Positions 970 through 64,000 of a stretch of DNA of 64,000 nucleotides are shown in pieces. A program made the position numbers and the translations under genes. The notes under the pieces were generated by a model. It ran no database searches, was not told the origin of the DNA, and saw only the letters and a program-made list of their open reading frames with translations. Origin of the DNA: Amphiscolops sp. MND2022 (Eukaryota); the NCBI GenBank assembly GCA_964187785.1, contig OZ076409.1, positions 73,038,001 to 73,102,000 of the forward strand. The letters run 5' to 3'. Each line of letters starts with the position of its first letter. Position 1 is the stretch's first letter.

Positions 970-1132
970 GCTAAAGTCCAGGTACTACAGCCCATATTTG
1001 TTTTTATGCGGCGCTCTTTAAACTAGTGTGTAGACGTATTAATCTTTTAACTGAATTTTCTTTTGTCTACACTTTGAGTTTGACTTGACATACACTGAAC
1101 GTTTTGTCCTTACAACATACACATTACTAACG

Positions 1133-1237
1133 TCAACGCCCCATCCTTGCATCAACGCCCACCGTCCGTGGGCATGCCGAGGCATGCCCTTCGACGACGT
1201 ATACCAAGATATACATAAGCGCGGTAGCCGCTAGGTG
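1133..1237 (+). other. Conserved junction element (representative copy; 47 copies plus one degenerate copy)
   Basis: TCAACGCC (1133) and TCAACGCCC (1152) direct repeats, ACCGTCCGT, hairpin 1170-1189, TTCGACGACGT, a variable segment, then CTAGGTG at 1231-1237. It ends every unit whatever the subfamily. Confidence 0.95.
1170..1189 (+). other. Junction hairpin HP2, GGGCATGCC-GA-GGCATGCCC (representative)
   Basis: Perfect 9-bp inverted repeat, almost invariant. The outer G-C pair is replaced by A-T at 26076-26095 and 36050-36069. Confidence 0.93.
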
Positions 1238-1265
1238 CCGGGATTTCTATTCGATAAAGTATGTG

Positions 1266-1294
1266 GCGCGCCTTGGGTAGGGTCCCTTGCGCGC
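1266..1294 (+). other. Stem-loop HP3 carrying GGG(T/G)AGGG(T/C/G)CC about 40 bp downstream of the junction (representative)
   Basis: GCGCG...GGGTAGGGTCCC...CGCGC in this copy. The same core motif sits inside different closing stems in other subfamilies. Confidence 0.85.
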
Positions 1295-1702
1295 TCTTGG
1301 GTATGGTGTTCACCAGCTAGGAAACAGGGGTCGATTTTTCGGGATCTCCTAAACTAGCCACACGATTTGGCTGAAATTTGGCACACGTACCCCCCTCGGC
1401 ACGGTGAAGATGATTCCCTACTGACGTTTTGCTCGCTAAACATTTTTTGTTGACCAAAATAACGGTTTTTGGGGTAAAATTTTCAACTTTTTTTAAATTT
1501 CATCTTATATCTCGCCACGGGTTTACGCTAGCGCTTCCAAATCTTGCTGACGAAACCTTGCAAACTGTCTCAGGAATGCGGTGTGAAATTTTCAGCTCAA
1601 TCGGACTTAAACTCAGGGAGATATAGCGTTTTTCCGGAGCGGGGGGGTTTCATTTTTCTAACGGTCCAGCTTATCTTAGCCATTTTTTCGAAAATGTACT
1701 CG

Positions 1703-1811
1703 CCTAAAGACCTCCCCTGGCCGGTTTTATTCCCAGCAAAACCATTTGGCCCTAAATACGGAGTTTCAGCGTTCCAGCATTCCCGGGCGAAAAGTTGTGG
1801 GACTTAGAAAA
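1703..1811 (+). repeat. Most conserved internal block of main-family units (representative)
   Basis: CCTAAAG(A/G)CCTCCCCTGGCC...CCATTTGGCCCTAAATACGGAGTTTCAGCGTTC(C/T)AGCATTCCCGGGCGAAAAGTTGTGGGACTTAGAAAA is shared by subfamilies whose flanks differ strongly (for example near 446, 15848, 17112, 26666 and 44401). Confidence 0.9.
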
Positions 1812-2517
1812 TTTCAAAAATTTTCAAAATTTTTTTTTTCGGTTTTCCGCCCTCCCCCCCGAGGGGAAAAGACCCCCCAACCAGTAATTTGAGTGAATTC
1901 ATGTGGAAAGGCCATGTTTAGAGGAGAAAAATCCCGTTTAAATCGTCTTTTTATCTTTATTCAACGTTGACTTATGACGTTTTGAAGGTGATGTTTGGAG
2001 GTGTGAAGCACGTGAAAAGTAAACGTTATGAGTATTTATCTGATCTGAAAGCCATTGAGATGAACCTGTTTTGCTCAAAACGTAATTCATATCAGTCTGG
2101 TAGTCAATCAACACCCTTTGTTGTCATTTGACATCTTTTTTTGTTGATATAAGAAAAAATTTCGTGTATTTATTCATTTTTTTCTCATCAAATAACTTGA
2201 AACAGTTGAGTACATTCCATCCCCCCTTCACGGGGGAGATGAGAATGTACTCGCAGAAAGCCCCGAACTACGGCCCTTACCTTCCTGAGCTACGCAGTAT
2301 AAAGATTGCATATTGGTTCCGACATTTTGATAGAGTTATATCTTGGTAATCTGTCTGGGTATGCAGAAAAACCAGCACGTGCTTTTTTATACCAAGTTGC
2401 TCACAACGACATTTATTTTATATCAACGCCCCCATATTTATCAACGCCCCCCGTCCGTGGGCATGCCGAGGCATGCCCTTCGACGACGTATACCAAGATA
2501 TGTTCGAGCGCGTTAGC

Positions 2518-3789
2518 CTAGGTGCCGGGATTTTCTATTCGACAAGTTTGCGCGCCTTGGGGAGGGTCCCTTTGCGCGCTTTAAGATCCAGGTGTTTCCA
2601 ACTCCTAAACGGGCATGTGATTTCGACGATCTCCTAAACTAGCCATACGATTTGGCTGAAATTTGGCACACGTACCACCCTCGGCACGGTGAAGATGATT
2701 TCCTACTGACGTTTTTCCCGCTAAACATTTTTTGTTGTCCAAAATAACGGTTTTTGGTGGAAAATTTTTGATTTTTTTTAAATTTCATCTTATATCTCGC
2801 CACGGGTTTACGCTAGCGCTTCAAAACCTTGCTGACGAAAGTTTGCAAACTGTCTCAGGAATGCGGTGTGAAATTTTCAGCTCAATCGGACTCAAACTCG
2901 AGGAGATATAGCGTTTTTCCGGAGCGGGGGGGTTTCATTTTTCTAACGGTCCAGCTTATCTTTGCCATTTTTTCGAAAATGCACTCGCCTAAAGGCCTCC
3001 CCTGGCCGGTTTTATTCCCAGCAAAACCATTTGGCCCTAAATACGGAGTTTCAGCGTTCCAGCATTCCCGGGCGAAAAGTTGTGGGACTTAGAAAATTTC
3101 AAAAATTTTCAAAAAAAATTTTTTCCGTTATTTGGGCCCCCAAAGTGGGGGAAAAGACCCCCCAACCAGTAAAGCAAGTGAATGCATGTGGAAAGCCCTT
3201 AGTTAGATGAGAAAAATGGCGTTTAGAACGTCTTTTTATCTTGGCTCAACGTTGTCTTATGACGTTTTGAAGGTGACCGTTAGATACGGAAAATTGATGT
3301 TTTGAGTCTTTATCCCATCTGAAAGCCACTGAGATACAACATGTTTTGCTCAAAACGTATTTCATTGCAGTTTCGCTGTCCATTAACACCCTTTGGTGTC
3401 TTTTGACGTATTTTTCTTTTCTATAATAACATTTTTTCTGTGTATTTATTCATTTGTTTTTCATCAAATAACTTGAAACAGTTGAGTACATTCCATCTCC
3501 CTTCCCGGGGGAGATGAGAATGTACTCGCTAAAGGCCGCGAACTACGGTCTATATCTTCCCCAACACAAAAGAGATTGAAAATTGTTTCATTTTGTGGAA
3601 AAAATTCTTCTTTTTGTACACTGTGACTCGACAAAGTGAACGTTTCTTACCTATTTTGAAACTTCCCTCACCAAAAACCATCTCTAACGTCAGCGCCCCC
3701 CTACTTGCATCAACGCCCCCCGTCCGTGGGCATGCCGAGGCATGCCCTTCGACGACGTATACCAAGATATACCTGGAGCGCGGTAGCCG
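2518..3789 (+). mobile_element. Putative cassette, head type H2 (near-identical unit at 38694-39964; same head at 14070 and 51572)
   Basis: Head CCGGGATTTTCTATTCGACAAGTTTGCGCG...TTAAGATCCAGG; tail CTAAAGGCCGCGAACTACGGTC...CCTGGAGCGCGGTAGCCG. Confidence 0.6.
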
Positions 3790-5062
3790 CTAGGTGCCGG
3801 GATTTCCATTCGATAAGGAATTCTGCGCGTGTGGGTAGTGCCCCTGGCGCGCTCCTGTGTTTTCGGTTTTCCTACTCCTAAATAGACCCCCTGAATTCCG
3901 GGATCTCCTAAACTATCCATACGATTTGGCTGAAATTTGGCACACGTACCCCCCTCGGCACGGTGAAGATGATTTCCTACTGACGTTTTTCCCGCTAAAC
4001 ATTTTTTGTTGACCAAAATAACGGTTTTTGGGGTAAAATTTTGAACTTTTTTTAAATTTCATCTTATATCTCGCCACGGGTACACGCTAGCGCTTCCAAA
4101 CCTTGCTGACGAAAGTTTGCAAACTGTCTCAGGAATGCTGTGTGAAATTTTCAGCTCAATCGGACTTAAACTCGAGGAGATATAGCGTTTTCCCGGAGCG
4201 GGGGGGTTTCAATTTTCTAACGGTCCAGCTTATCTTTGCCATTTTTTCGAAAATGCACTCGCCTAAAGGCCTCCCCTGGCCGGTTTTATTCCCAACAAAA
4301 CCATTTGGCCCTAAATACGGAGTTTCAGCGTTCCAGCATTCCCGGGCGAAAAGTTGTGGGACTTAGAAAAGTTCAAAAATTTTCAAAAAAAATTTTTTCC
4401 GTTATTTGGGCCCTCAAAGTGGGGGAAAAGACCCCCCAACCAGTAAAGCAAGTGAATGCATGTGGAAAGCCCTTTTTTAGACGAGAAAAATGCCGTCTAG
4501 AACGTCTTTTTATCTTAACTTGACATTGACTTTTGTCGTTTTGAAGGTGACCGTTAGATACGGAAAATTGATGTTTTGAGTATTTATCCCATCTGAAAGC
4601 CATTGAGATACAACATGTTTTGCTCAAAACGTGTTTCATTGCAGTTTCGCTGTCCATTATCACCCTTTGGTGTCTTTTCACGTAATTTTCGTTTCTATAA
4701 TAACAATTTTTTTGTGTATTTATTCATTTTATTCTCATCAAATAACTTGAAACAGTTGAGTACATTCCATCTCCCTTCCCGGGGGAGATGAGAATGTACT
4801 CGCTAAAGGTCAGGAACTACGGTCTATATCTTCCACAACACAAATGGGATTGCAAATGGTTTCAGTTTGTCGCAGAAAACTTCTTTTTGCCCTCTGTGAC
4901 TCGACAAAATGAACGTTTCTTACTTACTTTGAAACTCAGCATACCACAACTCATCTCTAACGTCAGCGCCCCCCTACTTGCATCAACGCCCACCGTCCGT
5001 GGGCATGCCGAGGCATGCCCTTCGACGACGTATACCAAGATATACCTGGAGCGCGGTAGCCG
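3790..5062 (+). mobile_element. Putative cassette, head type H3 (head also at 6352, 12804, 19202, 37406)
   Basis: Head CCGGGATTTCCATTCGATAAGGAATTCTGCG. The tail is shared with unit 41252, which has a different head. Confidence 0.55.
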
Positions 5063-8000
5063 CTAGGTGCCGGTGTTTTTTTACACAATGGGGGAAGTTG
5101 CGCGGTTGGGGAGGGTCCCTGACGCGCTTCCGTGGTATCGGGTCTTTCAACCGATGAAAACGCGACAGAAAATCGGGATCTCGTAAACTAGCCATACGAT
5201 TTGGCTGAAATTTGGCACACGTACCCCCCTCGGCACGGTGAAGATGATTCCCTACTGACGTTTTTCCCGCTAAACATTTTTTGTTGACCAAAATAACGGT
5301 TTTTGGGGTAAAATTTTCAACTTTTTTTAAATTTCATCTTATATCTCGCCACGGGTGCACGCTAGCGCTTCCAAACCTTGCTGACGAAAGTTTGCAAACT
5401 GTCTCAGGAATGCTGTGTGAAATTTTCAGCTCAATCGGACTCGAACTCGAGGAGATATAGCGTTTTTCCGGAGCGGGGGGGTTTCATTTTTCTAACGGTC
5501 CAGCTTATCTTTGCCATTTTTTCGAAAATGCACTCGCCTAAAGGCCTCCCCTGGCCGGTTTTATTCCCAGCAAAACCATTTGGCCCTAAATACGGAGTTT
5601 CAGCGTTCCAGCATTCCCGGGCAAAAAGTTGTGGGACTTAGAAAATTTCAAAAATTTTCAAAAAAATTTTTTTCCGTTATTTGGGCCCCCAAAGTGGGGG
5701 AAAAGACCCCCCAACCAGTAAAGCAAGTGAATGCATGTGCAAAGCCCTTGTTTAGAGGAGAAAAATGCCGTTTAGAACGTCTTTTTATCTTGGCTCAACG
5801 TTGACTTATGACGTTTTGAAGGTGATGTTTGGAGGTGTAAAGCACGTGAATAGTAAACGTTATGAGTATTTATCTGATCTGAAAGCCATTGAGATGCAAT
5901 ATGGTTTGCTCAAAACGTAATTCTTGGCAGTTTGGCAATCAATCAACACCCTTTGTTGTCGTTTGACATACTTTTTTGTTGTTATAATAAAAAATTTTGT
6001 GTATTTATTCATTTTTTTCTCATCAAATAACTTGAAACAGTTGAGTACATTCCATCCCCCCTTCCGGGGGAGATGAGAATGTACTCGCAAAAAGCACCGA
6101 ACTACGGCCCTTACCTTCCCGAGCTACGCAGTTTAAGGATTACATATTGGTTCCGACATTTTCATAGAGTTAAATCTTGGTAATCTGTCTGGATATGCAG
6201 AAAAATCAGCACGTGCCTTTTAATACCAAGTTGCTCACAACGACAATTATTTTATATCAACGCCCCCATATTTATCAACGCCCCCCGTCCGTGGGCATGC
6301 CGAGGCATGCCCTTCGACGACGTGCACCAAGATATGCTATAACGCGTTAGCCTAGGTGCCGGGATTTCCATTCGATAAGGAATTCTGCGCGTGTGGGTAG
6401 GGCCCCTGGCGCGCTCCTGTGTTTTCGGTTTTCCTACTCCAAATTCACACCCCAGTTATCTCCGATCTCGTAAACTATCCATACGATTTGGCTGAAATTT
6501 GGCACACGTACCCCCCTCGGCACGGTGAAGATGATTTCCTACTGACGTTTTTCCCGCTAAACATTTTTTGTTGACCAAAATAACGGTTTTTGGGGTAAAA
6601 TTTTCAACTTTTTTTAAATTTTATCTTATATCTCGCCACGGGTACACGCTAGCGCTTCCAAACCTTGCTGACGAAAGTTTGCAAACTGTCTCAGGAATGC
6701 TGTGTGAAATTTTCAGCTCAATCGGACTTAAACTCGAGGAGATATAGCGTTTTTCCGGAGCGGGGGGGTTTCATTTTTCTAACGGTCCAGCTTATCTTTG
6801 CCATTTTTTCGAAAATGCACTCGCCTAAAGGCCTCCCCTGGCCGGTTTTATTCCCAGCAAAACCATTTGGCCCTAAATACGGAGTTTCAGCGTTCCAGCA
6901 TTCCCGGGCGAAAAGTTGTGGGACTTAGAAAATTTCAAAAATTTTCAAAAATTTTTTTTCCGTTATTTGGGCCCCCAAAGTGGGGGAAAAGACCCCCCAA
7001 CCAGTAAAGCAAGTGAATGCATGTGCAAAGCCCTTGTTTAGAGGAGAAAAATGCCGTTTAGAACGTCTTTTTATCTTGGCTCAACGTTGACTTATGACGT
7101 TTTGAAGGTGATGTTTGGAGGTGTAAATCACGTGAATAGTAAACGTGAATAGAAAGAGTATTTATCTGATCTGAAAGCCATTGAGATGCAATATGGTTTG
7201 CTCAAAACGTAATTCATGGCAGTTTGGCAATCAATCAACACCCTTTGTTGTCGTTTGACATACTTTTTTGTTGTTATAATAAAAATTTTGTGTATTTGTT
7301 CATTTTTTTCTCATCAAATAACTTGAAACAGTTGAGTACATTCCATCCCCCCTTCCGGGGGAGATGAGAATGTACTCGCAAAAAGCAGCGAATTACGGCC
7401 CTTACCTTCCCGAGCTACGCAGTATAAGGATTACATATTGGTTCCGACATTTTCATAGAGTTAAATCTTGGTAATCTGTCTGGATATGCAGAAAAATCAG
7501 CACGTGCCTTTTAATACCAAGTTGCTCACAACGACAATTATTTTATATCAACGCCCCCATATTTATCAACGCCCCCCGTCCGTGGGCATGCCGAGGCATG
7601 CCCTTCGACGACGTATACCAAGATATACATCGAGCGCGTTAGCCTAGGTGCCGGGATTTCTATTCGATAAAGTATGTGGCGCGCCTTGGGTAGGGTCCCT
7701 TGCGCGCTCTTGGGTATGGTGTTCACCAGCTAGGAAACAGGGGTCGATTTTTCGGGATCTCCTAAACTAGCCACACGATTTGGCTGAAATTTGGCACACG
7801 TACTCCCCTCGGCATGGTGAAGATGATTCCCTACTAGCGTTTTGCTCGCAAAATTTTTTTTGTTGTCCAAAATAACGGTTTTTGGGGGAAAATTTTGAAC
7901 TTTTTTTAAATTTCATCTTATATCTCGCCACGGGTTTACGCTAGCGCTTCAAAACCCTGCTAAAGAAAGCTTGCAAACTGTCTCAGGAATGCGGTGTGAA

Positions 8001-8932
8001 ATTTTCAGCTCAATCGGACTTAAACTCAGGGAGATATAGCGTTTTTCCGGAGCGGGGGGGTTTCATTTTTCTAACGGTCCAGCTTATCTTAGCCATTTTT
8101 TCGAAAATGTACTCGCCTAAAGACCTCCCCTGGCCGGTTTTATTCCCAGCAAAACCATTTGGCCCTAAATACGGAGTTTCAGCGTTCCAGCATTCCCGGG
8201 CGAAAAGTTGTGGGACTTAGAAAATTTCAAAAATTTTCAAAAATTTTTTTTTCGGTTTTCCGCCCTCCCCCCCGAGGGGAAAAGACCCCCCAACCAGTAA
8301 TTTGAGTGAATTCATGTGGAAAGGCCATGTTTAGAGGAGAAAAATGCCGTTTAGAACGTCTTTTTATCTTGGCTCAACGTTGACTTATGACGTTTTGAAG
8401 GTGATGTTTGGAGGTGTGAAGCACGTGAAAAGTAAACGTTATGAGTATTTATCTGATCTGAAAGCCATTGAGATGAAACCTGTTTTGCTCAAAACGTAAT
8501 TCATATCAGTTTGGTAGTCAATCAACACCCTTTGTTGTCATTTGACATCTTTTTTTTGTTGATATAAGAAAAAATTTCGTGTATTTATTCATTTTTTTCC
8601 CATCAAATAACTTGAAACAGTTGAGTACATTCCATCCCCCCTTCACGGGGGAGATGAGAATGTACTCGCAAAAAGCCCCAAACTACGGCCCTTACCTTCC
8701 TGAGCTACGCAGTATAAAGATTGCATATTGGTTCCGACATTTTGATAGAGTTATATCTTGGTAATCTGTCTGGGTATGCAGAAAAACCAGCACGTGCTTT
8801 TTTATACCAAGTTGCTCACAACGACATTTATTTTATATCAACGCCCCCATATTTATCAACGCCCCCCGTCCGTGGGCATGCCGAGGCATGCCCTTCGACG
8901 ACGTATACCAAGATATGTTCGAGCGCGTTAGC

Positions 8933-10225
8933 CTAGGTGCCGGTGTTTTTTTACACAATGGGGAAAGTTGCGCGGTTGGGGAGGGTCCCTGACGCGCTCC
9001 CGGGATTTCGGATTTTTTAACCTTTACGTACCCATCAAAAATTTTGGGATCTCGAAAACTAGCCGTACGATTTGGCTGAAATTTGGCACACGTACCCCCC
9101 TCGGCACGGTGAAGATGATTTCCTACTGACGTTTTTCCCGCTAAACATTTTTTGTTGACCAAAATAACGGTTTTTGGGGTAAAATTTTCAACTTTTTTTA
9201 AATTTCATCTTATATCTCGCCACGGGTACACGCTAGCGCTTCCAAACCTTGCTGACGAAAGTTTGCAAACTGTCTCAGGAATGCTGTGTGAAATTTTTAG
9301 CTCAATCGGACTTAAACTCGAGGAGATATAGCGTTTTTCCGGAGCGGGGGGGTTTCATTTTTCTAACGGTCCAGCTTATCTTTGCCATTTTTTCGAAAAT
9401 GCACTCGCCTAAAGGCCTCCCCTGGCCGGTTTTATTCCCAGCAAAACCATTTGGCCCTAAATACGGAGTTTCAGCGTTCCAGCATTCCCGGGCGAAAAGT
9501 TGTGGGACTTAGAAAATTTCAAAAATTTTCAAAAAAATTTTTTTCCGTTATTTGGGCCCCCAAAGTGGGGGAAAAGACCCCCCAACCAGTAAAGCAAGTG
9601 AATGCATGTGCAAAGCCCTTGTCTGAACGAGAAAAATGCCGTTTAGAACGTCTTTTTATCTTGGCTCAACGTTGACTTATGACGTTTTGAAGGTGATGTT
9701 TGGAGGTGTAAAGCACGTGAATAGTAAACGTTATGAGTATTTATCTGATCTGAAAGCCATTGAGATACAATATGGTTTGCTCAAAACGTATTTCATTGCA
9801 GTTTGGCAATCAATACAACACCCTTTGTTGTCGTTTGACATACTTTTTTGTTGTTCTAATAAAAAATTTTGTGTATTTATTCATTTTTTTCTCATCAAAT
9901 AACTTGGAACAGTTGAGTACATTCCATCCCCCCTTCCGGGGGAGATGAGAATGTACTCGCAAAAAGCACCGAACTACGGCCCTTACCTTCCCGAGCTACG
10001 CAGTATAAGGATTACATATTGGTTCCGACATTTTCATAGAGTTATATCTTGATAATCTGTCTGGATATGCCGAAAAATCAGCACGTGCCTTTTAATACCA
10101 AGTTGCTCACAACGACAATTATTTTATATCAACGCCCCCATATTTATCAACGCCCCCCGTCCGTGGGCATGCCGAGGCATGCCCTTCGACGACTCGCACC
10201 AAAATATGCGTTAGCGCGGTAGCCG
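8933..10225 (+). mobile_element. Putative cassette, head type H4 (near-identical unit at 59277-60570; related heads at 5063, 10226, 21780, 29601, 54143, 55435, 57987)
   Basis: Head CCGGTGTTTTTTTACACAATGGGG. Private variants (GAAATTTTTAGCTC, CTTGTCTGAACGAG, CAATACAACACCC, GACTCGCACCAAAATATGCGTTAGC) are shared with the copy 50 kb away. Confidence 0.65.
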
Positions 10226-13200
10226 CTAGGTGCCGGTGTTTTTTTACACAATGGGGGAAGTTGCGCGTGTGGGGAGGGTCCCTGACGCGCTCCCGGGATT
10301 TCGGATTTTTTAACCTTTACGTACCCATCAAAAATTTTGGGATCTCGAAAACTAGCCGTACGATTTGGCTGAAATTTGGCACACGTACCCCCCTCGGCAC
10401 GGTGAAGATGATTCCCTACTGACGTTTTTCCCGCTAAACATTTTTTGTTGACCAAAATAACGGTTTTTGGGGTAAAATTTTCAACTTTTTTTAAATTTCA
10501 TCTTATATCTCGCCACGGGTGCACGCTAGCGCTTCCAAACCTTGCTGACGAAAGTTTGCAAACTGTCTCAGGAATGCTGTGTGAAATTTTCAGCTCAATC
10601 GGACTTAAACTCGAGGAGATATAGCGTTTTTCCGGAGCGGGGGGGTTTCATTTTTCTAACGGTCCAGCTTATCTTTGCCATTTTTTCGGAAATGCACTCG
10701 CCTAAAGGCCTCCCCTGGCCGGTTTTATTCCCAGCAAAACCATTTGGCCCTAAATACGGAGTTTCAGCGTTCCAGCATTCCCGGGCGAAAAGTTGTGGGA
10801 CTTAGAAAAGTTCAAAAATTTTCAAAAAAATTTTTTTCCGTTATTTGGGCCCCCAAAGTGGGGGAAAAGACCCCCCAACCAGTAAAGCAAGTGAATGCAT
10901 GTGCAAAGCCCTTGTTTAGAGGAGAAAAATGCCGTTTAGAACGTCTTTTTATCTTGGCTCAACGTTGACTTATGACGTTTTGAAGGTGATGTTTGGAGGT
11001 GTAAAGCACGTGAATAGTAAACGTTATGAGTATTTATCTGATCTGAAAGCCATTGAGATGCAATATGGTTTGCTCAAAACGTAATTCATGGCAGTTTGGC
11101 AATCAATCAACACCCTTTGTTGTCGTTTGACATACTTTTTTGTGGTTATAATAAAAAATTTTGTGTATTTATTCATTTTTTTCTCATCGAATAACTTGAA
11201 ACAGTTGAGTACATTCCATCCCCCCTTCCGGGGGAGATGAGAATGTACTCGCAAAAAGCACCGAACTACAGCCCTTACCTTCCCGAGCTACGCAGTATAA
11301 GGATTACATATTGGTTCCGACATTTTCATAGAGTTAAATCTTGGTAATCTGTCTGGATATGCAGAAAAACCAGCACGTGCTTTTTTATACCAAGTTGCTC
11401 ACAACGACAATTATTTTATATCAACGCCCCCATATTTATCAACGCCCCCCGTCCGTGGGCATGCCGAGGCATGCCCTTCGACGACGTATACCAAGATATG
11501 TTCGAGCGCGTTAGCCTAGGTGCCCGGATTTCTATTCGATAAAGTATGTGGCGCGTGTGGGTAGGGTCCCTGGCGCGCTCTTGGGTATGGTGTTCACCAG
11601 CTAGGAAATAGGGGTCGATTTTTCGGGATCTCCTAAACTAGCCACACGATTTGGCTGAAATTTGGCACACGTACCCCCCTCGGCACGGTGAAGATGATTT
11701 CCTACTGACGTTTTTCCCGCAAAATTTTTTTTGTTGTCCAAAATAACGGTTTTTGGGGTAAAATTTTGAATTTTTTTTTAAATTTCATCTTATATCTCGC
11801 CACGGGTTTACGCTAGCGCTTCAAAACCCTGCTAAAGAAAGCTTGCAAACTGTCTCAGGAATGCGGTGTGAAATTTTCAGCTCCATCGGACTCAAACTCA
11901 GGGAGATATAGCGTTTTTCCGGAGCGGGGGGGTTTCATTTTTCTAACGGTCCAGCTTATCTTAGTCATTTTTTCGAAAATGTAATCGCCTAAAGGCCTCC
12001 CCTGGCCGGTTTTATTCCCAGCAAAACCATTTGGCCCTAAATACGGAGTTTCAGCGTTCTAGCATTCCCGGGCGAAAAGTTGTGGGACTTAGAAAATTTC
12101 AAAAATTTTCAAAAAATTTTTTTTCCGTTTTCCGCCCTCCCCCCCTAGGGGAAAAGACCCCCCAACCAGTAATTTGAGTGAATTCATGTGGAAAGGCCAT
12201 GTTTAGAGGAGAAAAATTTCGTTTAAATCGTCTTTTTATCTTTATTCAACGTTGACTTATGACGTTTTGAAGGTGATGTTTGGAGGTGTGAAGCACGTGA
12301 AAAGTAAACGTTATGAGTATTTATCTGATCTGAAAGCCATTGAGATGCAACCTGTTTTGCTCAAAACGTAATTCATATCAGTTTGGTAGTCAATCAACAC
12401 CCTTTGTTGTCATTTGACATCTTTTTTTGTTGATATAAGAAAAAATTTCGTGTATTTATTCATTTTTTTCTCATCAAATAACTTGAAACAGTTGAGTACA
12501 TTCCATCCCCCCTTCACGGGGGAGATGAGAATGTACTCGCAAAAAGCTCCGAACTACGGCCCTTACCTTCCTGAGCTACGCAGTATAAAGATTGCATATT
12601 GGTTCCGACATTTTGATAGAGTTATATCTTGGTAATCTGTCTGGGTATGCAGAAAAACCAGCACGTGCTTTTTTATACCAAGTTGCTCACAACGACATTT
12701 ATTTTATATCAACGCCCCCATATTTATCAACGCCCCCCGTCCGTGGGCATGCCGAGGCATGCCCTTCGACGACGTATACCAAAATATGTTCGAGCGCGTT
12801 AGCCTAGGTGCCGGGATTTCCATTCGATAAGGAATTCTGCGCGTGTGGGTAGGGCCCCTGGCGCGCTCCTGTGTTTTGGGTTTTCCTACTCTAAATTCAC
12901 ACATCAGTTATCTCGGATCTCGAAAACTAGCCACACGATTTGGCTGAAATTTGGCACACAGCTCCGTTGGAACATTGTAAGAACAAATCCCTACTGACGT
13001 TTTGCCCGCTAAACATTTTTTGTTGGTCAAAAATGCGATTTTCCGACAAAATTTTTGACTTTTTTTTCTTTTTCAACTCATATCTCGTCACAGGGTCACG
13101 CTAGCGCTTCGCAACCTATGATCCTTTTTTGTAGGGCATTGCATGTAGAACACGTATGCCAAATTTGGTGGCGATCGGACTTAAACTCAGGGAGATATAA

Positions 13201-26000: not shown

Positions 26001-26139
26001 CCTCTGACTCAACTATAGCATGTACGTAATGAAACCAATAACACCTTCAACTGTTAATCAACGCCCACCGTCCGTAGGCATGCCGAGGCATGCCTTTCGA
26101 CGACGCGCGCCAAAAACAATATAACGGCGCCACCCGCTT
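23069..26139 (+). mobile_element. Long divergent cassette (3071 bp) with about 2 kb of AT-rich sequence unique in the window
   Basis: Bounded by junctions. Has HP3 (23102-23133), the GCTGAAATTTGGCATG box and CCGGAA repeats (23772-23819). About 24000-26040 has no counterpart elsewhere in the window. It ends in a variant junction (CTGGGTG). Confidence 0.6.
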
Positions 26140-52900: not shown

Positions 52901-55900
52901 GGTAGGGTCCCTGGCGCGCTCTTGGGTATGGTGTTCACCAGCTAGGAAATAGGGGTCGATTTTTCGGGATCTCCTAAACTAGCCACACGATTTGGCTGAA
53001 ATTTGGCACACGTACTCCCCTCGGCACGGTGAAGATGATTTCCTACTGACGTTTTGCTCGCAAAATTTTTTTTGTTGTCCAAAATAACGGTTTTTGGGGT
53101 AAAATTTTGAATTTTTTTTAAATTTTATCTTATATCTCGCCACGGGTTTACGCTAGCGCTTCAAAACCCTGCTAAAGAAAGCTTGCAAACTGTCTCAGGA
53201 ATGCGGTGTGAAATTTTCAGCTCAATCGGACTCAAACTCGGGGAGATATAGCGTTTTTCCGGAGCGGGGGGGTTTCATTTTTCTAACGGTCCAGCTTATC
53301 TTTGCCATTTTTTCGAAAATGTACTCGCCTAAAGGCCTCCCCTGGCCGGTTTTACTCCCAGCAAAACCATTTGGCCCTAAATACGGAGTTTCAGCGTTCT
53401 AGCATTCCCGGGCGAAAAGTTGTGGGACTTAGAAAAGTTCAAAAATTTTCAAAAATTTTTTTTTCCGTTTTCCGCCCTCCCCCCTAGGGGAAAAGACCCC
53501 CCAACCAGTAATTTGAGTGAATTCATGTGGAAAGGCCATGTTTAGAGGAGAAAAATACCGTTTAGATCGTCTTTTTATTTTAACCTGTCGTTGACTTATG
53601 ACGTTTTGAAGGTGATGTTTGGAGGTGTGAAGCACGTGAAAAGTAAACGTTATGAGTATTTATCTGATCTGAAAGCCATTGAGATGCAACCTGTTTTGCT
53701 CAAAACGTAATTCATATCAGTTTGGTAGTCAATCAACACCCTTTGTTGTCATTTGACATCTTTTTTTGTTGATATAAGAAAAAATTTCGTGTATTTATTC
53801 ATTTTTTTCTCATCAAATAACTTGAAACAGTTGAGTACATTCCATCCCCCCTTCACGGGGGAGATGAGAATGTACTCGCAAAAAGCCCCGAACTACGGCC
53901 CTTACCTTCCTGAGCTACACAGTATAAAGATTGCATATTGGTTCCGACATTTTGATAGAGTTATATCTTGGTAATCTGTCTGGGTATGCAGAAAAACCAG
54001 CACGTGCTTTTTTATACCAAGTTGCTCACAACGACATTTATTTTATATCAACGCCCCCATATTTATCAACGCCCCCCGTCCGTGGGCATGCCGAGGCATG
54101 CCCTTCGACGACGTATACCAAGATATGTTCGAGCGCGTTAGCCTAGGTGCCGGTGTCTTTTTACACAATGGGGGAAGTTGCGCGGTTGGGGAGGGTCCCT
54201 GACGCGCTTCCGTGAGATCAGGTTTTTCAACTAGTGAAATCGACAAAGAAAATTGGGATCTCGTAAACTAGCCATACGATTTGGCTGAAATTTGGCACAC
54301 GTACCCCCCTCGGCACGGTGAAGATGATTCCCTACTGACGTTTTTCCCGCTAAACATTTTTTGTTGACCAAAATAACGGTTTTTGGGGTAAAATTTTCAA
54401 CTTTTTTTAAATTTCATCTTATATCTCGCCACGGGTGCACGCTAGCGCTTCCAAACCTTGCTGACGAAAGTTTGCAAACTGTCTCAGGAATGCTGTGTGA
54501 AAATTTCAGCTCAATCGGACTCAAACTCGGGGAGATATAGCGTTTTTCCGGAGCGGGGGGGTTTCATTTTTCTAACGGTCCAGCTTATCTTTGCCATTTT
54601 TTCGAAAATGCACTCGCCTAAAGGCCTCCCCTGGCCGGTTTTATTCCCAGCAAAACCATTTGGCCCTAAATACGGAGTTTCAGCGTTCCAGCATTTCCGG
54701 GCGAAAAGTTGTGGGACTTAGAAAATTTCAAAAACTTTCAAAAAATTTTTTTTCCGTTATTTGGGCCCCCAAAGTGGGGGAAAAGACCCCCCAGCCAGTA
54801 AAGCAAGTGAATGCATGTGCAAAGCCCTTGTTTGGACGAGAAAAATGCCGTTTAGAACGTCTTTTTATCTTTGCTCAACGTTGACTTATGATGTTTTGAA
54901 GGTGATGTTTGGAGGTGTAAAGCAAGTGAATAGTAAACGTTATGAGTATTTATCTGATCTGAAAGCCATTGAGATGCAATATGGTTTGCTCAAAACGTAA
55001 TTCATTGCAGTTTGGCAATCAATCAACACCCTTTGTTGTCGTTTGACATACTTTTTTGTTGTTATAATAAAAAATTTTGTGTATTTATTCATTTTTATCT
55101 CATCAAATAACTTGGAACAGTTGAGTACATTCCACCCCCCCCTTCCGGGGGAGATGAGAATGTACTCGCAAAAAGCACCGAACTACGGCCCTTACCTTCC
55201 CGAGCTACGCAGTATAAGGATTACATATTGGTTTCGACATTTTCATAGAGTTATATCTTGGTAATCTGTCTGGATATGCCGAAAAATCAGCACGTGCCTT
55301 TTAATACCAAGTTGCTCACAACGACAATTATTTTATATCAACGCCCCCATATTTATCAACGCCCCCCGTCCGTGGGCATGCCGAGGCATGCCCTTCGACG
55401 ACCCGCACCAAAATATGCGTTAGCGCGGTAGCTGCTAGGTGCCGGTGTATTTTTACACAATGGGGGATGTTGCGCGTGTGGGGAGGGTCCCTGACGCGCT
55501 TCCGTGGTTTCGGGTCTTCTAACCTATGATAGCGTGACACCTGACTTCGATCTCGTAAACTAGCCGTACGATTTGGCTGAAATTTGGCACACGTACCCCC
55601 CTCGGCACGGTGAAGATGATTTCCTACTGACGTTTTTCCCGCTAAACATTTTTTGTTGACCAAAATAACGGTTTTTGGGGTAAAATTTTCAACTTTTTTT
55701 AAATTTCATCTTATATCTCGCCACGGGTACACGCTAGCGCTTCCAAACCTTTCTGACGAAAGTTTGCAAACTGTCTCAGGAATGCTGTGTGAAATTTTCA
55801 GCTCAATCGGACTTAAACTCGAGGAGATATAGCGTTTTTCCGGAGCGGGGGGGTTTCATTTTTCTAACGGTCCAGCTTATCTTTGCCATTTTTTCGGAAA

Positions 55901-58900
55901 TGCACTCGCCTAAAGGCCTCCCCTGGCCGGTTTTATTCCCAGCAAAACCATTTGGCCCTAAATACGGAGTTTCAGCGTTCCAGCATTCCTGGGCGAAAAG
56001 TTGTGGGACTTAGAAAAGTTCAAAAAATTTCAAAAATTTTTTTTCCGTTATTTGGGCCCCCAAAGTGGGGGAAAAGACCCCCCAACCAGTAAAGCAAGTG
56101 AATGCATGTGCAAAGCCCTTGTTTAGAGGAGAAAAATGCCGTTTAGAACGTCTTTTTATCTTGGCTCAACGTTGACTTATGACGTTTTGAAGGTGATGTT
56201 TGGATGTGTAAAGCACGTGAATAGTAAACGTTATGAGTATTTATCTGATCTGAAAGCCATTGAGATGCAATATGGTTTGCTCAAAACGTAATTCATGGCA
56301 GTTTGGCAATCAATCAACACCCGTTGTCGTTTGACATACTTTTTTGTTGTTATAAAAAAAATTTTGTGTAATTATTCATTTTTTTCTCATCAAATAACTT
56401 GAAACAGTTGAGTACATTCCATCCCCCCTTCCGGGGGAGATGAGAATGTACTCGCAAAAAGCTCCGAATTACGGCCCTTACCTTCCCGAGCTACGCAGTA
56501 TAAGGATTGCATATTGGTTCCGACATTTTCATAGAGTTAAATCTTGGTAATCTGTCTGGATATGCAGAAAAATCAGCACGTGCCTTTTAATACCAAGTTG
56601 CTTACAACGACAATTATTTTATATCAACGCCCCCATATTTATCAACGCCCCCCGTCCGTGGGCATGCCGAGGCATGCCCTTCGACGACGTATACCAAGAT
56701 ATGCGTTAACGCGTTAGCCTAGGTGCCGGGATTTCTATTCGTTCGAGTATGTGGCGCGTGTGGGTAGGGCCCCTGGCGCGCTCTTGTGTTTCGGGTTTTC
56801 CTACTCCTAAACCGCGTTCAGATTTTCGGGATCTCGTAAACTAGCCATACGATTTGGCTGAAATTTGGCACACGTACCCCCCTCGGCACGGTGAAGATGA
56901 TTCCCTACTGACGTTTTGCCCGCTAAACATTTTTTGTTGACCAAAATAACGGTTTTTGGTGGAAATTTTTCAACTTTTTTTAAAATTCATCTTATATCTC
57001 GCCCCAGGTTTACGCTAGCGCTTCAAAACCTTGCTGACGAAAGTTTGCAAACTGTCTCAGGAATGCGGTGTGAAATTTTCAGCTCAATCGGACTTAAACT
57101 CGAGGAGATATAGCGTTTTTCCGGAGCGGGGGGGTTTCATTTTTCTAACGGTCCAGCGTATCTTTGCCATTTTTTCGAAAATGCACTCGCCTAAAGGCCT
57201 CCCCTGGCCGGTTTTACTCCCAAAAAAACCATTTGGCCCTAAATACGGGGTTTCAGCGTTCTAGCATTTTCGGGCGAAAAGTTGTGGGACTTAGAATATT
57301 TCAAAAATTTTCAAAAAAATTTTTTTCCGTTATTTGGGCCCCCAATGTGGGGGAAAGGACCCCCCAACCAGTATTTTGAGTGAATGCATGTGCAAAGCGC
57401 TTGTTTAGAGGAGAAAAATGTCGTTTAGAACGTCTTTTTATCTTTACTCAACGTTGACTTTTGTCGTTTTGAAGGTGACCGTTAGATATGGAAAATTGAT
57501 GTTTTGAGTATTTATCTCATCTGAAAGCCATTGAGATACAACATGTTTTGCTCAAAACGTGTTTCATTGCAGTATCGCTGTCCATTAACACCCTTTGGTG
57601 ACTTTTGACATATTTTTTTTATATATAATATCACTTTTTTGTGCATTTTTTCGTTTTTTTCTCATCTAATATCTTGAAACAGTTGAGTACATTCCATCTC
57701 CCTTCCCGGGGGAGATGAGAATGTACTCGCTAAAGGCCATGAACTACGGCCTATACCTTCCCGAGCTACGCACTACAATTATTGCATATGCATGCAGACC
57801 TTTTAATACATTTTTATCTTTATAGATTGACTGGACAAACTGAAAACTCTGTCCTGATTATACAAAGTTACCTCACAACGACACATGTTTACGTCAACGC
57901 TCCATACTTTACATCAACGCCCACCGTCCGTGGGCATGCCGAGGCATGCCCTTCGACGACGTATAGCCACTCAAACGCGGTAGCCGCTAGGTGCCGGTGT
58001 TTTTTTACACAATGGGGGAAGTTGCGCGGTTGGGGAGGGTCCCTGACGCGCTTCCGTGGTATCGGGTCTTTCAACCGATGAAAACGACATAAAAAATTGG
58101 GATCTCGTAAACTAGCCATACGATTTGGCTGAAATTTGGCACACGTACCCCCCTCGGCACGGTGAAGATGATTCCCTACTGACGTTTTGCTCGCTAAACA
58201 TTTTTTGTTGACCAAAATAACGGTTTTTGGGGTAAAATTTTCAACTTTTTTTAAATTTCATCTTATATCTCGCCACGGGTACACGCTAGCGCTTCCAAAC
58301 CTTGCTGACGAAAGTTTGCAAACTGTCTCAGGAATGCTGTGTGAAATTTTCAGCTCAATCGGACTCAAACTCGAGGAGATATAGCGTTTTTCCGGAGCGG
58401 GGGGGTTTCATTTTTCTAACGGTCCAGCATATCTTTGCCATTTTTTCGAAAATGTACTCGCCTAAAGGCCTCCCCTGGCCGGTTTTATTCCCAGCAAAAC
58501 CATTTGGCCCTAAATACGGAGTTTCAGCGTTCCAGCATTTCCGGGCGAAAAGTTGTGGGACTTAGAAAATTTCAAAAATTTTCAAAAATTTTTTTTTCGT
58601 CATTTGGGCCCCCAAAGTGGGGGAAAAGACCCCCCAACCAGTAAAGCAAGTGAATGCATGTGCAAAGCCCTTGTTTAGGGGAGAAAAATGCCGTTTAGAA
58701 CGTCTTTTTATCTTGGCTCAACGTTGACTTATGACGTTTTGAAGGTGATGTTTGGAGGTGTGAAGCACGTGAATAGTAAACGTTATGAGTATTTATCTGA
58801 TCCGAAAGCCATTGAGATGCAATATGGTTTGCTCAAAACGTAATTCATTGCAGTTTGGCAATCAATCAACACCCTTTGTTGTCGTTTGACATATTTTTTT

Positions 58901-61900
58901 GTTGTTATAATAAAAAATTTTGTGTATTTATTCATTTTTTTCTCATCAAATAACTTGAAACAGTTGAGTACATTCCATCGCCCCCTTCCGGGGGAGATGA
59001 GAATGTACTCGCAAAAAGCACCGAACTACGGCCCTTACCTTCCCGAGCTACGCAGTATAAGGATTACATATTGGTTCCGACATTTTCATAGAGTTATATC
59101 TTGGTAATCTGTCTGGATATGCAGAAAAATCAGCACGTGCCTTTTAATACCAAGTTGCTTACAACGACAATTATTTTATATCAACGCCCCCATATTTGTC
59201 AACGCCCCCCGTCCGAGGGCATGCCGAGGCATGCCCTTCGACGACGTGTACCAAGATATACCTTGAGCGCGTTAGCCTAGGTGCCGGTGTTTTTTTACAC
59301 AATGGGGAAAGTTGCGCGGTTGGGGAGGGTCCCTGACGCGCTCCCGGGATTTCGGATTTTTTAACCTTTACGTACCCATCAAAAATTTTGGGATCTCGAA
59401 AACTAGCCGTACGATTTGGCTGAAATTTGGCACACGTACCCCCCTCGGCACGGTGAAGATGATTTCCTACTGACGTTTTTCCCGCTAAACATTTTTTGTT
59501 GACCAAAATAACGGTTTTTGGGGTAAAATTTTCAACTTTTTTTAAATTTCATCTTATATCTCGCCACGGGTACACGCTAGCGCTTCCAAACCTTGCTGAC
59601 GAAAGTTTGCAAACTGTCTCAGGAATGCTGTGTGAAATTTTTAGCTCAATCGGACTTAAACTCGAGGAGATATAGCGTTTTTCCGGAGCGGGGGGGTTTC
59701 ATTTTTCTAACGGTCCAGCTTATCTTTGCCATTTTTTCGAAAATGCACTCGCCTAAAGGCCTCCCCTGGCCGGTTTTATTCCCAGCAAAACCATTTGGCC
59801 CTAAATACGGAGTTTCAGCGTTCCAGCATTCCCGGGCGAAAAGTTGTGGGACTTAGAAAATTTCAAAAATTTTCAAAAAAATTTTTTTCCGTTATTTGGG
59901 CCCCCAAAGTGGGGGAAAAGACCCCCCAACCAGTAAAGCAAGTGAATGCATGTGCAAAGCCCTTGTCTGAACGAGAAAAATGCCGTTTAGAACGTCTTTT
60001 TATCTTGGCTCAACGTTGACTTATGACGTTTTGAAGGTGATGTTTGGAGGTGTAAAGCACGTGAATAGTAAACGTTATGAGTATTTATCTGATCTGAAAG
60101 CCATTGAGATACAATATGGTTTGCTCAAAACGTATTTCATTGCAGTTTGGCAATCAATACAACACCCTTTGTTGTCGTTTGACATACTTTTTTGTTGTTC
60201 TAATAAAAAATTTTGTGTATTTATTCATTTTTTTCTCATCAAATAACTTGGAACAGTTGAGTACATTCCATCCCCCCCTTCCGGGGGAGATGAGAATGTA
60301 CTCGCAAAAAGCACCGAACTACGGCCCTTACCTTCCCGAGCTACGCAGTATAAGGATTACATATTGGTTCCGACATTTTCATAGAGTTATATCTTGATAA
60401 TCTGTCTGGATATGCCGAAAAATCAGCACGTGCCTTTTAATACCAAGTTGCTCACAACGACAATTATTTTATATCAACGCCCCCATATTTATCAACGCCC
60501 CCCGTCCGTGGGCATGCCGAGGCATGCCCTTCGACGACTCGCACCAAAATATGCGTTAGCGCGGTAGCCGCTAGGTGCCGGGATTTCTATTCGATAAAGT
60601 ATTTTGCGCGGTTGGGTAGGGCCCCGTGAGCGCGCCAGGGGATTGTGTTAGAACAACCGGAAATTCGGCATACGATTTTGGCGATTTTCTAAACTATCCA
60701 TACGATTTGGCTCAAATTTGGCATACGGGTTCCTGAGACAGATATAAGAACTAATTCCTACTGGCGTTTTGCCCGGAAAATTTTTTTTGTTGCCCAAAAT
60801 TGAAATTTTCGGCAAAAAAATGCGATTTTTTTTGAAAAATTTTTTTTGAGAGGCCATATCTTTTTTCAGGGTGCCCGGAGCGGGACGCGTTAAACTGATT
60901 ATAAACTCTACGGTTCATGGGCTTTACGGAGAACCTAAGCTCGTTTCGCTCGGACAAATAGTCTTGGAGATATAACGGGATTTTTTGGGAATTTTTTGAA
61001 AATTTTTCTAACGGTCCAGCTTATCTTTGCCATTTTTTCAAAAATGCACTCGCCTAAAGGCCTCCCCTGGCCGGTTTTATTCCCAGCAAAACCATTTGGC
61101 CCTAAATACGGAGTTTCAGCGTTCCAGCATTCCCGGGCGAAAAGTTGTGGGACTTAGAAAAATTTCAAAATTTTTCAAAAAATTTTTTTCCGTTTTCCGC
61201 CCTCCCCCCCGAGGGGAAAAGACCCCCCAACCAGTAATTTGAGTGAATTCATGTGGAAAGCCCATGTTTAGAGGAGAAAAATGCCGTTTAGATCGTCTTT
61301 TTATTTTAACCTGTCGTTGACTTATGTTGTTTTGAAGGTGATGTTTGGATGTGTGAAGCATGTGAAAAGGTAATTTATTGTGTCTTTAGCTCTTCTAAAA
61401 GCCATTGAGATACAAGGTGTAGCACTCAGAACGTGTTTAATTCTAAATTAGCAATGCATCAACACTTTTTGTGTCTTTGGACTCTGTTAAAAAATTTTTT
61501 CCGACTAAAATCAAAAATTATTTATAATTATTCACATTTTTTTCTGATCTCATGACTCGAAACAGTTGAGTACATTCCATCTCCCTTCCAGGGGGAGATG
61601 AGAATGTACTCTCTAAAGACCAGGTACTACAGTACTTACCTTACCCGAGCAACGCCCCATAAAAATTGCGTTTTGATTATTCTATTTTGACATAATTCTA
61701 TCTTTGTAATTTGACTGGAAATGAAGAAAATCCGCACGTGCTCTTTTATATCAAGTATCTTAACAACGCCATCTCTTTAACGTCAACGCCCCATAGTTCA
61801 CATCAACGCCCACCGTCCGTGGGCATGCCGAGGCATGCCCTTCGACGACGTATGCCAAAGATATTCCCGAGCGCGTTAGCCTAGGTGCCGGGATTTCTAT

Positions 61901-63167
61901 TCGATAAAGTATGTGGCGCGCCTTGGGTAGGGTCCCTTGCGCGCTCTTGGGTATGGTGTTCACCAGCTAGGAAACAGGGGTCGATTTTTCGGGATCTCCT
62001 AAACTAGCCACACGATTTGGCTGAAATTTGGCACACGTACCCCCCTCGGCACGGTGAAGATGATTTCCTACTGACGTTTTTCCCGCAAAATTTTTTTTGT
62101 TGTCCAAAATAACGGTTTTTGGGGTAAAATTTTGAATTTTTTTTAAATTTTATCTTATATCTCGCCACCGGTTTACGCTAGCGCTTCAAAACCCTGCTAA
62201 AGAAAGCTCGCAAACTGTCTCAGGAATGCGGTGTGAAATTTTCAGCTCAATCGGACTCAAACTCAGGGAGATATAGCGTTTTTCCGGAGCGGGGGGGTTT
62301 CATTTTTCTAACGGTCCAGCTTATCTTAGCCATTTTTTCGAAAATGTACTCGCCTAAAGACCTCCCCTGGCCGGTTTTATTCCCAGCAAAACCATTTGGC
62401 CCTAAATACGGAGTTTCAGCGTTCCAGCATTCCCGGGCGAAAAGTTGTGGGACTTAGAAAATTTCAAAAATTTTCAAAATTTTTTTTTTCCGTTTTCCGC
62501 CCTCCCCCCCTAGGGGAAAAGACCCCCCAACCAGTAATTTGAGTGATTTCATGTGGAAAGGCCATGTTTAGAGGAGAAAATGCCGTTTAGAACGTCTTTT
62601 TATCTTGGCTCAACGTTGACTTATGACGTTTTGAAGGTGATGTTTGGAGGTGTAAAGCACGTGAATAGTAAACGTTATGAGTATTCATCTGATCTGAAAG
62701 CCATTGAGATGCAACCTGTTTTGCTCAAAACGTAATTCATATCCGTTTGGTAGTCAATCAACACCCTTTGTTGTCATTTGACATCTTTTTTTGTTGATAT
62801 AAGAAAAAATTTCGTGTACTTATTCATTTTTTTCTCATCAAATAACTTGAAACAGTTGAGTACATTCCATCCCCCCTTCACGGGGGAGATGAGAATGTAC
62901 TCGCAAAAAGCCCCAAACTACGGCCCTTACCTTCCTGAGCTACGCAGTATAAAGATTGCATATTGGTTCCGACATTTTGATAGAGTTATATCTTGGTAAT
63001 CTGTCTGGGTATGCAGAAAAACCAGCACGTGCTTTTTTATACCAAGTTGCTCACAACGACATTTATTTTATATCAACGCCCCCATATTTATCAACGCCCC
63101 CCGTCCGTGGGCATGCCGAGGCATGCCCTTCGACGACGTATACCAAAATATGTTCGAGCGCGTTAGC

Positions 63168-64000
63168 CTAGGTGCGGGGGGGTAACCCCAACAAATATAT
63201 TGGAGGATTCGGGTAGGGTCCTGAATCCGATTTTAACTCTAATAGCTATCGATAGGAAATCTTGCAAAAATTTCGGGATCTCGTGATCTAACCATAGGAT
63301 TTTAAAGTTGGAGCGGCCCCCACCAGATTTTCCGAAAATTAGCGCCCCCCACCGGGTTCCAGCGTGATTGAAATATTTTGTCGGGGTACACGGGCGACCG
63401 TTAGGGGTCATTTTAGGGGTAAAATTTATAAAAGTTAGCATAACTTTTTTCCTGTTGGTTTAAAACTTTAGGACCCTGCTAAAAGTTTCTTGACCATGTT
63501 GCAGGGGCCCCGGAGGTCCAAACCAAATTTTTCTATCTTGAAGCTATCTCCAAGTACCCCCCCGCTCAAACCGTTATTTTTCCGGAAACGCAGGTTTTTG
63601 ACCCGGAAGGAGTCGTCTGAGCGCGGGGTCGTTAGGTGATGTATTGGGGACGGCCTTGAGACGAAGTGGGGGACAAGTAGTTTGCCAACCTCAATTTACC
63701 CCCCGGACGGGAAATGACCGTTATATGAGCGTGAAAAATGCCCCCCTCCACGTTTTACCGCTATTTCCGGTGTGAAGGAGTGGGAGTAGCGCGTCGGGTG
63801 TTATATAACAAAAGTAGGTTTAGACAAGGACCTATCGGAAACATGTAGTTTGGGACCCCCTGGACCAACCCGTTAGCGGGCAATGGGGCTTCCGCCTCCT
63901 TTTTTTAGTGCTAAAACCGTAAAATGGGCATTGAGGGGTAAATATCTCGTGAACGCGTGGAGCAATCGTGTCCATCACTACTACAAGGTTTCATACCCAT
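63168..64000 (+). mobile_element. 3'-truncated divergent cassette related to the 3071-bp unit
   Basis: 63763-63830 (ATTTCCGGTGTGAAGGAGTGGG...AAAAGTAGGTTTAGACAAGG) matches 23533-23600 (ATTTCCGATGTGAAGGAGTGGG...AAAAGTAGGTTTAGACAAAG). HP3 at 63205-63228. Confidence 0.65.

Follow-up and report, generated by a model that had tools for sequence, protein, structure and literature searches.

A covarying left-end hairpin in a divergent, array-forming lineage of Helitron-like elements from Amphiscolops

Helitron-like groups and the Amphiscolops array

Helitron-like elements (HLE) of eukaryotes are divided into HLE1 (Helitrons such as Helraiser) and HLE2 (Helitron2, Helentron and proto-Helentron) by features described in PMC11417382, PMC3627910 and PMC5148889. 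Here we compare with these groups a stretch of 64,000 nucleotides from Amphiscolops sp. MND2022 (G000:C1:73038001-73102000, C1 being its contig in a genome of 1.07 Gb), which we call the window. The whole of the window (1..64000, + strand) is a segment of a multi-megabase array of head-to-tail, non-autonomous Helitron-like units in a single orientation, and related matches extend across C1 71–76.4 Mb and onto other contigs. Close to the left end of nearly every unit lies a hairpin, HP3. We conclude that HP3 is a real, covarying and probably strand-specific left-end hairpin, and that the units belong to a divergent, array-forming Helitron-like lineage.

The enzyme of this lineage was found outside the window, in which no long coding frame is present (the longest of 48 stop-to-stop frames of at least 100 aa has 152 aa). 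A profile search with PF14214 gave 17 matches in C1:71–77 Mb among the 150 listed, all on the strand of the array and in long open frames. Ten loci were examined, and each contained one open reading frame (ORF) of 2350–2603 aa; these ORFs fall into four lineages about 30% identical. Each of the 10 complete autonomous units (12–17 kb) opens with a junction followed by HP3, and the ORF lies downstream on that same strand; HP3 is shared by the four transposase lineages. Pfam searches of the long ORFs identified Helitron_like_N (PF14214) and PIF1 (PF05970); in most ORFs a GIY-YIG domain follows at the C terminus. All 14 aligned proteins (14 of 14) preserve Rep motif I, HUH, Y-x3-Y and Walker A. 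The motifs of the GIY-YIG domain seem intact in the majority, and the shorter P0013 lacks this region. Judged by sequence, the array units encode a Y2-type HUH Rep-helicase and are Helitron-like transposons.

These results bear on an earlier note, made from the window alone, which had likened HP3 either to hairpins read by HUH transposases such as IS200/IS605 TnpA or to folded attC sites. The HUH analogy was the right one of the two, with the reservation that the enzyme is Helitron-like and not TnpA. The attC/integron analogy found no support: a tyrosine recombinase (Crypton or integron) was sought with PF00589, which matched at 4 places in the genome, all of them outside the array (DUF3504 was not searched). 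Three weak PF00589 matches lie 993 bases apart in one 1055-aa open frame at G000:C3:2083091-2085292, unrelated to the array.

The array units resemble HLE1 in their Rep-Pif1 transposase, in the lack of a target duplication, in their non-autonomous derivatives and in the 3' palindrome of many units, and their 3' ends, CTAG or CTGG, agree with the CTRR of HLE1. They start, however, with GTG rather than TC, and their apparent target is CTTG^DT rather than A^T. They also differ in having a left-end hairpin and in the position of the palindrome, which is about 40 nt from the end compared with 10–12 in HLE1. The relative P0015 had no Helraiser match in the PDB at E<=0.01, whereas a true HLE1 of the same genome matched at 8.6e-193, and the array transposases did not cluster with the two HLE1 references used.

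Likeness to HLE2 is seen in the long multidomain transposase, in the CTAG end of proto-Helentrons, and in the GIY-YIG domain described for one Sphagnum HLE2 family (PMC11417382). A 5' hairpin with compensatory changes has also been reported in HLE2 (PMC3627910); HP3 corresponds to it, but is located about 40 nt inside the element and is not built from an inverted terminal repeat. The asymmetric terminal inverted repeats of HLE2 (8–15 bp) were not found, as only 1 of 79 end pairs reaches 8 bp and the mean is 4.96 versus 5.08 for partner-swapped ends. Insertion differs as well, with CTTG^(A/G/T)T in place of T^T, and DUF6570 was detected in 0 of 7 array-type proteins versus 6 of 6 other long Helitron ORFs of the genome.

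In a Rep tree of 37 rows, which left out five near-duplicates and had this genome's Helitrons as its only references, the 27 array-type rows made up one side of a branch with support of 100/99–100 and a length of 2.3, which carries a long-branch warning. Three trees of 19 rows kept the array clade at 100, two metagenomic relatives included. Relative to five HLE2-like references, the clade lay outside when Rep or the concatenated domains were used (HLE2 support 60 and 79, respectively) and inside when the helicase was used (89). On these alignments the array transposases are a long-branch clade of their own, and may be an offshoot of HLE2.

Other systems share single features with the array. 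IS91 uses a CTTG target beside its origin end, has a look-alike tetranucleotide at the other end (CTCG, compared with CTRG here), subterminal palindromes and no duplication (bioRxiv 2025.01.24.634351); we take the resemblance as one of working. IS91 has a prokaryotic TnpA without a helicase, whereas the array elements are eukaryotic, Pif1-fused, 12–17 kb long and stacked. A telomere-targeted Paramecium clade likewise stands apart from HLE1 and HLE2 and is described as strictly oriented and as having an inferred specificity of target (bioRxiv 2025.11.06.686955), but by its description the proposed target is telomeric repeats and not element ends, and the accessible text does not contain the term GIY. 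The ends read by IS200/IS605 TnpA and the attC sites of integrons resemble HP3 as strand-specific folded single-stranded DNA near an element end, and integrons in their cassette-like arrays; the enzymes, a Y1 TnpA and a tyrosine recombinase, differ from the Y2 Rep-helicase found here. Replitrons lack a helicase (PMC10288648).

Relatives occur beyond Amphiscolops. With the Rep region of one lineage as query, 24 proteins were retrieved among 5,693 candidates, the first of them a sequence identical to the query, and 15 of the 24 have a precomputed GIY-YIG annotation. Relatives of different clusters sit on equal-sized contigs, which suggests mixed arrays in other assemblies. A metagenome scan added 4 relatives at 24–37% identity, and unnamed clusters with PIF1 plus GIY-YIG exist in the Atlas. 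In the full-text literature, a scope outside which lie Repbase, Dfam, supplements and most subscription journals, no description of this combination was found; the HELIANO supplements may bear on its classification. The nearest published cases are the Sphagnum HLE2 GIY-YIG family together with unclassified clusters (PMC11417382), the Paramecium clade named above, subtelomeric Helitron-like arrays of cnidarians (PMC11934779), small arrays in Xenopus (PMC12001565) and the hairpin-specific Ssn nucleases (PMC11893778). The accessible text of a centromere atlas preprint (10.64898/2026.09.17.752431) contained nothing specific.

Structure and covariation of HP3

The HP3 motif occurs 46 times on the + strand of the window and not once on the − strand. 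For a larger set, 147 junctions between units were anchored on the right-end palindrome, 47 from the window and 100 from other loci. The motif followed exactly in 141 of these and with at most 2 mismatches in 145; it was missing from 2. For 135 of these 145 junctions, the distance from the C of CTRG to the start of the motif is 41–45 nt.

The earlier note had proposed six different closing stems, and all of them were found at the positions given. The stem at 1266..1294 (+) is where it was said to be, but it has 6 bp, GCGCGC/GCGCGC rather than GCGCG/CGCGC, followed by an internal loop, a GGG/CCC upper stem and a TAGGGT loop. GCCAT/ATGGC is at 15395..15421 (+), in a left end similar to the one that starts an autonomous unit at C5:22.68 Mb, and CCGGCC/GGCCGG is at 23102..23133 (+), in the left end of a 3.07-kb unit. 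The AGGCT/AGCCT stem (30917-30946) is present, as an alternative register to a reading with a tandem G·A block, GCGAGGC/GCCGAGC, at 30916..30944 (+). The remaining two, GGAGGCGC/GCGCCGAC at 42554..42581 (+) and GAGGATTC/GAATCCGA at 63203..63230 (+), are contiguous stems with tandem G·A closing. The loop had been described as AGGG; a stem-loop is indeed present, and the loop is probably the 6-nt KAGGGB instead of four bases.

A Watson-Crick stem of at least 5 bp was found in 22 of 29 sequence clusters. Shuffled flanks gave far fewer (mean 1.9, maximum 8 in 1000 runs), and permuted partners gave a mean of 5.4 (maximum 13 in 2000); the self-complementary GCGCG stem, common to several clusters, raises this second control. 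Among 21 held-out clusters from other arrays, 16 scored at least 5 when tandem GA was counted and 9 by Watson-Crick pairs alone, versus a shuffle mean of 1.7 and maximum of 5. Clusters share ancestry, so these counts are not numbers of independent events. In the 17 ungapped, motif-anchored clusters ending in CCT, all four Watson-Crick types occur at pair position 2 (GC 6, TA 4, AT 2, CG 1), with GC 6, CG 4 and TA 3 at position 3 and CG 8, GC 5 and AT 3 at position 4. RNAalifold, run on 54 clusters, gave a GGG/CCY upper stem with the 6-nt KAGGGB loop and one pair of the lower stem, the latter because the lower stem slides in register. The middle pair of the upper stem is G-C in 54 of 54 clusters and the outer pair G-T in 17 of 54. 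Shuffling, permutation, held-out clusters and pair-type counts thus support the natural covariation of a subterminal left-end stem-loop that had been suggested.

The two strands of HP3 are not equivalent. Of 33 clusters, 14 have a block of GA against GA within the lower stem or at its closing end, compared with TC in 0, AG in 0 and TT in 3; the maximum was 2 with shuffled and 6 with permuted sequences. In the GCGCG types, as read from the listing, CGCG sits at about the place that CGAG has in other types. Predicted DNA folding was lower for the + strand in 27 of 33 clusters, by a small margin. Tandem sheared G·A pairs form stably in DNA, and on the − strand T·C mismatches would occupy these positions; the + strand is therefore the likely folding strand.

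One family is without the motif. Its window copy, a 2.2-kb unit at 27416..29604 (+), carries the inverted repeat CCGGAGT/ACTCCGG at a comparable distance from the end, and throughout the family (the window copy, L132 and L166) this repeat is 7 bp with a 38-nt spacer. In the window copy, the true right-end palindrome is preceded, 197 nt upstream, by another that is degenerate. The HP3 head contains two G3 tracts, for example GGGTAGGG at 1275-1282; we take it to resemble a telomeric repeat and presume that two heads could in principle make a bimolecular G-quadruplex. An older dispersed family (L096, L097, L110, L111, L115 and L119) has HP3 stems of the GAGGGAT/ATCCCGA type and a right end of its own, CTTG and not CTRG.

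Element ends, target site and array growth

The window contains 46 complete units, mostly of 1.27–1.31 kb, and 47 CTRGGTG junctions. In the example at 1231..1237 (+), CTAG|GTG, the 3' end of one unit meets the 5' start of the next, which extends as a complete non-autonomous unit, GTG…CTAG, over 1235..2521 (+); unit edges end after CTAG or CTGG, and we infer that the cut falls after CTRG. In an unanchored listing, 47 of 48 right-end palindromes were followed by CTRG and then GTG. Thirteen right ends without a following left end stop after CTRG, and the next bases are AT in 6, GT in 5 and TT in 2; two of these ends seem to be decayed or to have suffered a deletion, and another, weak match (then GA, at a locus without a junction) was set aside. 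For left ends, a 3-kb family gave 11 in which the third base of the tetranucleotide is a pyrimidine, 9 of them outside arrays and 2 after a right end. All 9 outside arrays read CTTG|GTG, as do solo copies. In a main family of the window, whose copies were not totalled, the CT ahead of the element lacks its C in 1 copy genome-wide and its T in none.

A filled and an empty site complete this evidence. At C1:74374176 a host unit is split in the order CTTG, two inserted units, GTAATCTG, without target duplication; this is the one clean filled site, and its homologous position in the window, CTTG^GTAATC at 2342..2351 (+), is an empty internal target. Among three nested candidates, continuation of the host unit within 30 kb was found for one and not for the other two. 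In one candidate the empty analogue is CTTG^CA, which does not fit the target, and no continuation was found. From the edges outside arrays and the filled/empty pair, the element sequence is read as GTG…CTRG and the target sequence as CTTG^(A/G/T)T.

Neighbouring units in the array are mostly unrelated. The 46 window units belong to 25 families, and neighbours of the same family number 3, versus 2.6 after shuffling (P=0.49); a simple satellite or concatemer was rejected for the window for want of an excess of like neighbours. The type of a left end is tied to the body of its own unit (AMI 0.76) and not to the unit upstream (AMI 0.08). Both findings, unrelated neighbours and a left-end type independent of the preceding unit, are best fitted by repeated insertion of single units at junctions. 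The exact pattern of junction plus HP3 occurs 3,920 times in the genome after CTAG and 46 times after CTTG, with none in the control (CTGG junctions were not counted). In 30 of the CTTG left ends that were inspected, about half were founders in unrelated DNA; the others comprised 3 after an ordinary right end, 6 of the CTTG-ended family and 5 inside other units. By a rough estimate that assumes 40% GC, bare targets in the genome number about two million.

Several non-autonomous units can be matched to autonomous ones. The unit at 12808..14073 (+) is 95% identical over its first 800 bp to the left end of a 12-kb autonomous unit at C1:74.33 Mb (2350-aa ORF). The young 3.07-kb unit at 23073..26143 (+) matches the ends of a 14-kb unit at C1:71.6 Mb (2545-aa ORF) at 97% over its first 910 bp and 94% over its last 89 bp; among 250 candidates, 40 scored copies of its family are 98–100% identical. 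The commonest, 1.29-kb family of the window matches the autonomous units compared at 70–76% in its left part only, so its direct autonomous partner was not found among them.

The right-end palindrome GGGCATGCCGAGGCATGCCC at 1170..1189 (+), about 40 nt before CTAG, is a candidate terminator hairpin. It was found in 223 of 282 units and in 22 of 41 right-end types, and is thus not universal; it is missing from several autonomous units and from 19 types, and several types fold weakly. A compensatory variant of the palindrome exists, outer G-C to A-T, and its centre is CGAG, the tetranucleotide also found in tandem-GA stems. A second, internal hairpin, GAGTACATTC…GAATGTACTC (window 2208-2252 and most 1.3-kb units), is strongly conserved about 270 nt before the right end and is absent from the matches of the 3.07-kb unit and from most autonomous units. 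A DINE/HINE reading with boundaries at the GAGTACATTC hairpin was ruled out, because units are inherited from junction to junction. Some long units (L055 at C2:57.82-57.84 Mb, and L043) look composite, in that sequence resembling a left end recurs in their interior; read-through would fit this, as would junction variants outside the search patterns. In L141-L143 (C1:23.96-23.99 Mb), two oppositely oriented arrays abut at their tails near C1:23.98 Mb. Downstream of the transposase in L040 (5894-7000) and similar loci are accessory ORFs of 217–383 aa, four of which were scanned without a Pfam match. A 66-nt repeat occurs three times downstream of a distant RepHel-GIY relative (L093:4881-4946, 6533-6598 and 8674-8739); we presume that it resembles a twister ribozyme, and Rfam at gathering threshold gave no match.

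Proposed recognition of HP3 and competing explanations

That HP3 is the left-end hairpin of a Helitron-like element we regard as very probable. The Helraiser transposase cuts only single-stranded DNA, nicks the top strand at the left end, needs that end, and makes head-to-tail circles (PMC4778049). By this analogy, HP3 would lie on the peeled strand at the origin end; because of that position, and because it is more constant than the right-end palindrome, it is the likely recognition element, and recognition by the element's own transposase is probable. In the mechanism that we propose, the enzyme would bind the invariant GGG-KAGGGB-CCY head on its variable stem, often with tandem G·A, nick after CTNG, and peel the + strand up to the next CTRG. 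The peeled strand would be closed into a circle whose junction is the same as an array junction, and the circle would join a target similar in sequence to the nick site. Any junction already in place would then be both a CTNG^GT site and an HP3-bearing loading site for the enzyme, and could therefore be strongly preferred over the roughly two million bare sites, giving shuffled arrays of many families. The preference for junctions would probably be a consequence of HP3 recognition. Taken whole, the account in which HP3 folds on the displaced + strand as a signal for the HUH-helicase, and junction-preferring insertion builds mixed arrays, seems to us a good deal better than even; its narrower component, that HP3 guides the choice of insertion site, we hold tentatively, at not quite an even prospect.

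Several observations weigh against this account. The clean new site holds two units 99.4% identical, which fits read-through concatemers, and C13 has long runs of the 3-kb family with mixed right-end variants. Three near-identical copies of the family without HP3 stand after three different right ends, so the motif may be dispensable. For Helraiser cleavage 40 terminal bases suffice (PMC4778049), and HP3 lies at about that edge. No HP3 was seen at the four metagenomic relatives, whose 5' ends are missing. The GIY-YIG motifs look degenerate in P0019 and P0021 and partly so in the 2545-aa lineage. An age comparison of units within arrays (14 first, 4 last including one mis-cut, and 4 solo units) showed no pattern, and targeting by HP3 is for that reason inseparable from targeting by right ends.

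The last point leads to the strongest competitor, in which HP3 is only a donor-origin signal and arrays grow by targeting of the right end (…CTRG plus hairpins) or by local re-insertion of a loaded enzyme. Right end and HP3 are confounded at every internal junction, the target CTTG resembles the end CTRG, and the HP3-less family is still found after right ends; yet right ends are far more variable than HP3, with 19 of 41 types lacking the palindrome, and further units follow them all the same. We consider this explanation a serious one, if somewhat less than probable. Arrays built mainly by rolling-circle concatemers and unequal crossing-over, with HP3 irrelevant to copy position, would accommodate the near-identical pair and the C13 runs, and tandem plant Helitrons have been ascribed to concatemers (cited in PMC11934779). 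The number of families among the window units without an excess of like neighbours, the mixture of right-end variants within the C13 runs themselves, and the sharing of arrays by four lineages at about 30% protein identity make this explanation improbable.

HP3 might also be read by a part of the machinery other than Rep. The fused GIY-YIG domain, present in most relatives and with a weak SLX1 match, could act like a hairpin-specific nuclease for single-stranded DNA, as the Ssn GIY-YIG enzymes cut beside hairpin repeats (PMC11893778), or an accessory protein could serve, one accessory ORF having OB-fold (POT1/RPA/MEIOB-like) leads in the Atlas at scores of at most 0.89. Those leads are below threshold and are no more than leads; the degenerate GIY-YIG motifs noted above count against the nuclease, as does the C5 ORF, which groups with P0019 and P0021 and has no Pfam GIY-YIG match in an element that keeps HP3. 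That either of them reads HP3 in place of Rep is unlikely in our judgment. Least probable is that HP3 acts as RNA or as a double-stranded protein site (promoter or insulator). Its position ahead of the ORF on the coding strand would suit such a role, as would the formation of tandem GA pairs in RNA, and we take the junction to resemble a CTCF motif; however, the distance from HP3 to the inferred nick is fixed, HP3 is kept in non-coding derivatives, and covarying stems are needless in a double-stranded site. In a search of Rfam for a structured RNA, neither the window nor six other loci gave a match.

Returning to HP3 as a signal for the transposase, a wider proposal may be offered, which we regard as somewhat doubtful: the array elements would be a third major Helitron-like lineage, with fused GIY-YIG and IS91-style CTTG targeting, in which transposases about 30% identical would all read one single-stranded hairpin head, use HP3 as a landing pad at each other's ends, and so build communal megabase arrays. 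If the landing-pad reading is true, eukaryotes would have a natural, site-specific HUH integrase whose target is portable and shorter than 100 bases.

What is known of how Helitrons choose ends and targets comes mostly from a single reconstructed element. The present set adds dozens of natural variants, which together delineate a left-end signal: its head is invariant, and its stem covaries, with tandem G·A and G-C pairs replacing each other. Because intact young autonomous copies exist, recognition of this signal is directly testable. If HP3 does guide insertion, this would explain how satellite-like, megabase arrays of mixed families arise while sparing genes, and the enzyme would be a site-specific integrase moving 12–17 kb. 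Even without HP3-guided insertion, the elements make up a divergent lineage with unusual termini, which detectors built on TC…CTRR ends or on inverted repeats would miss.

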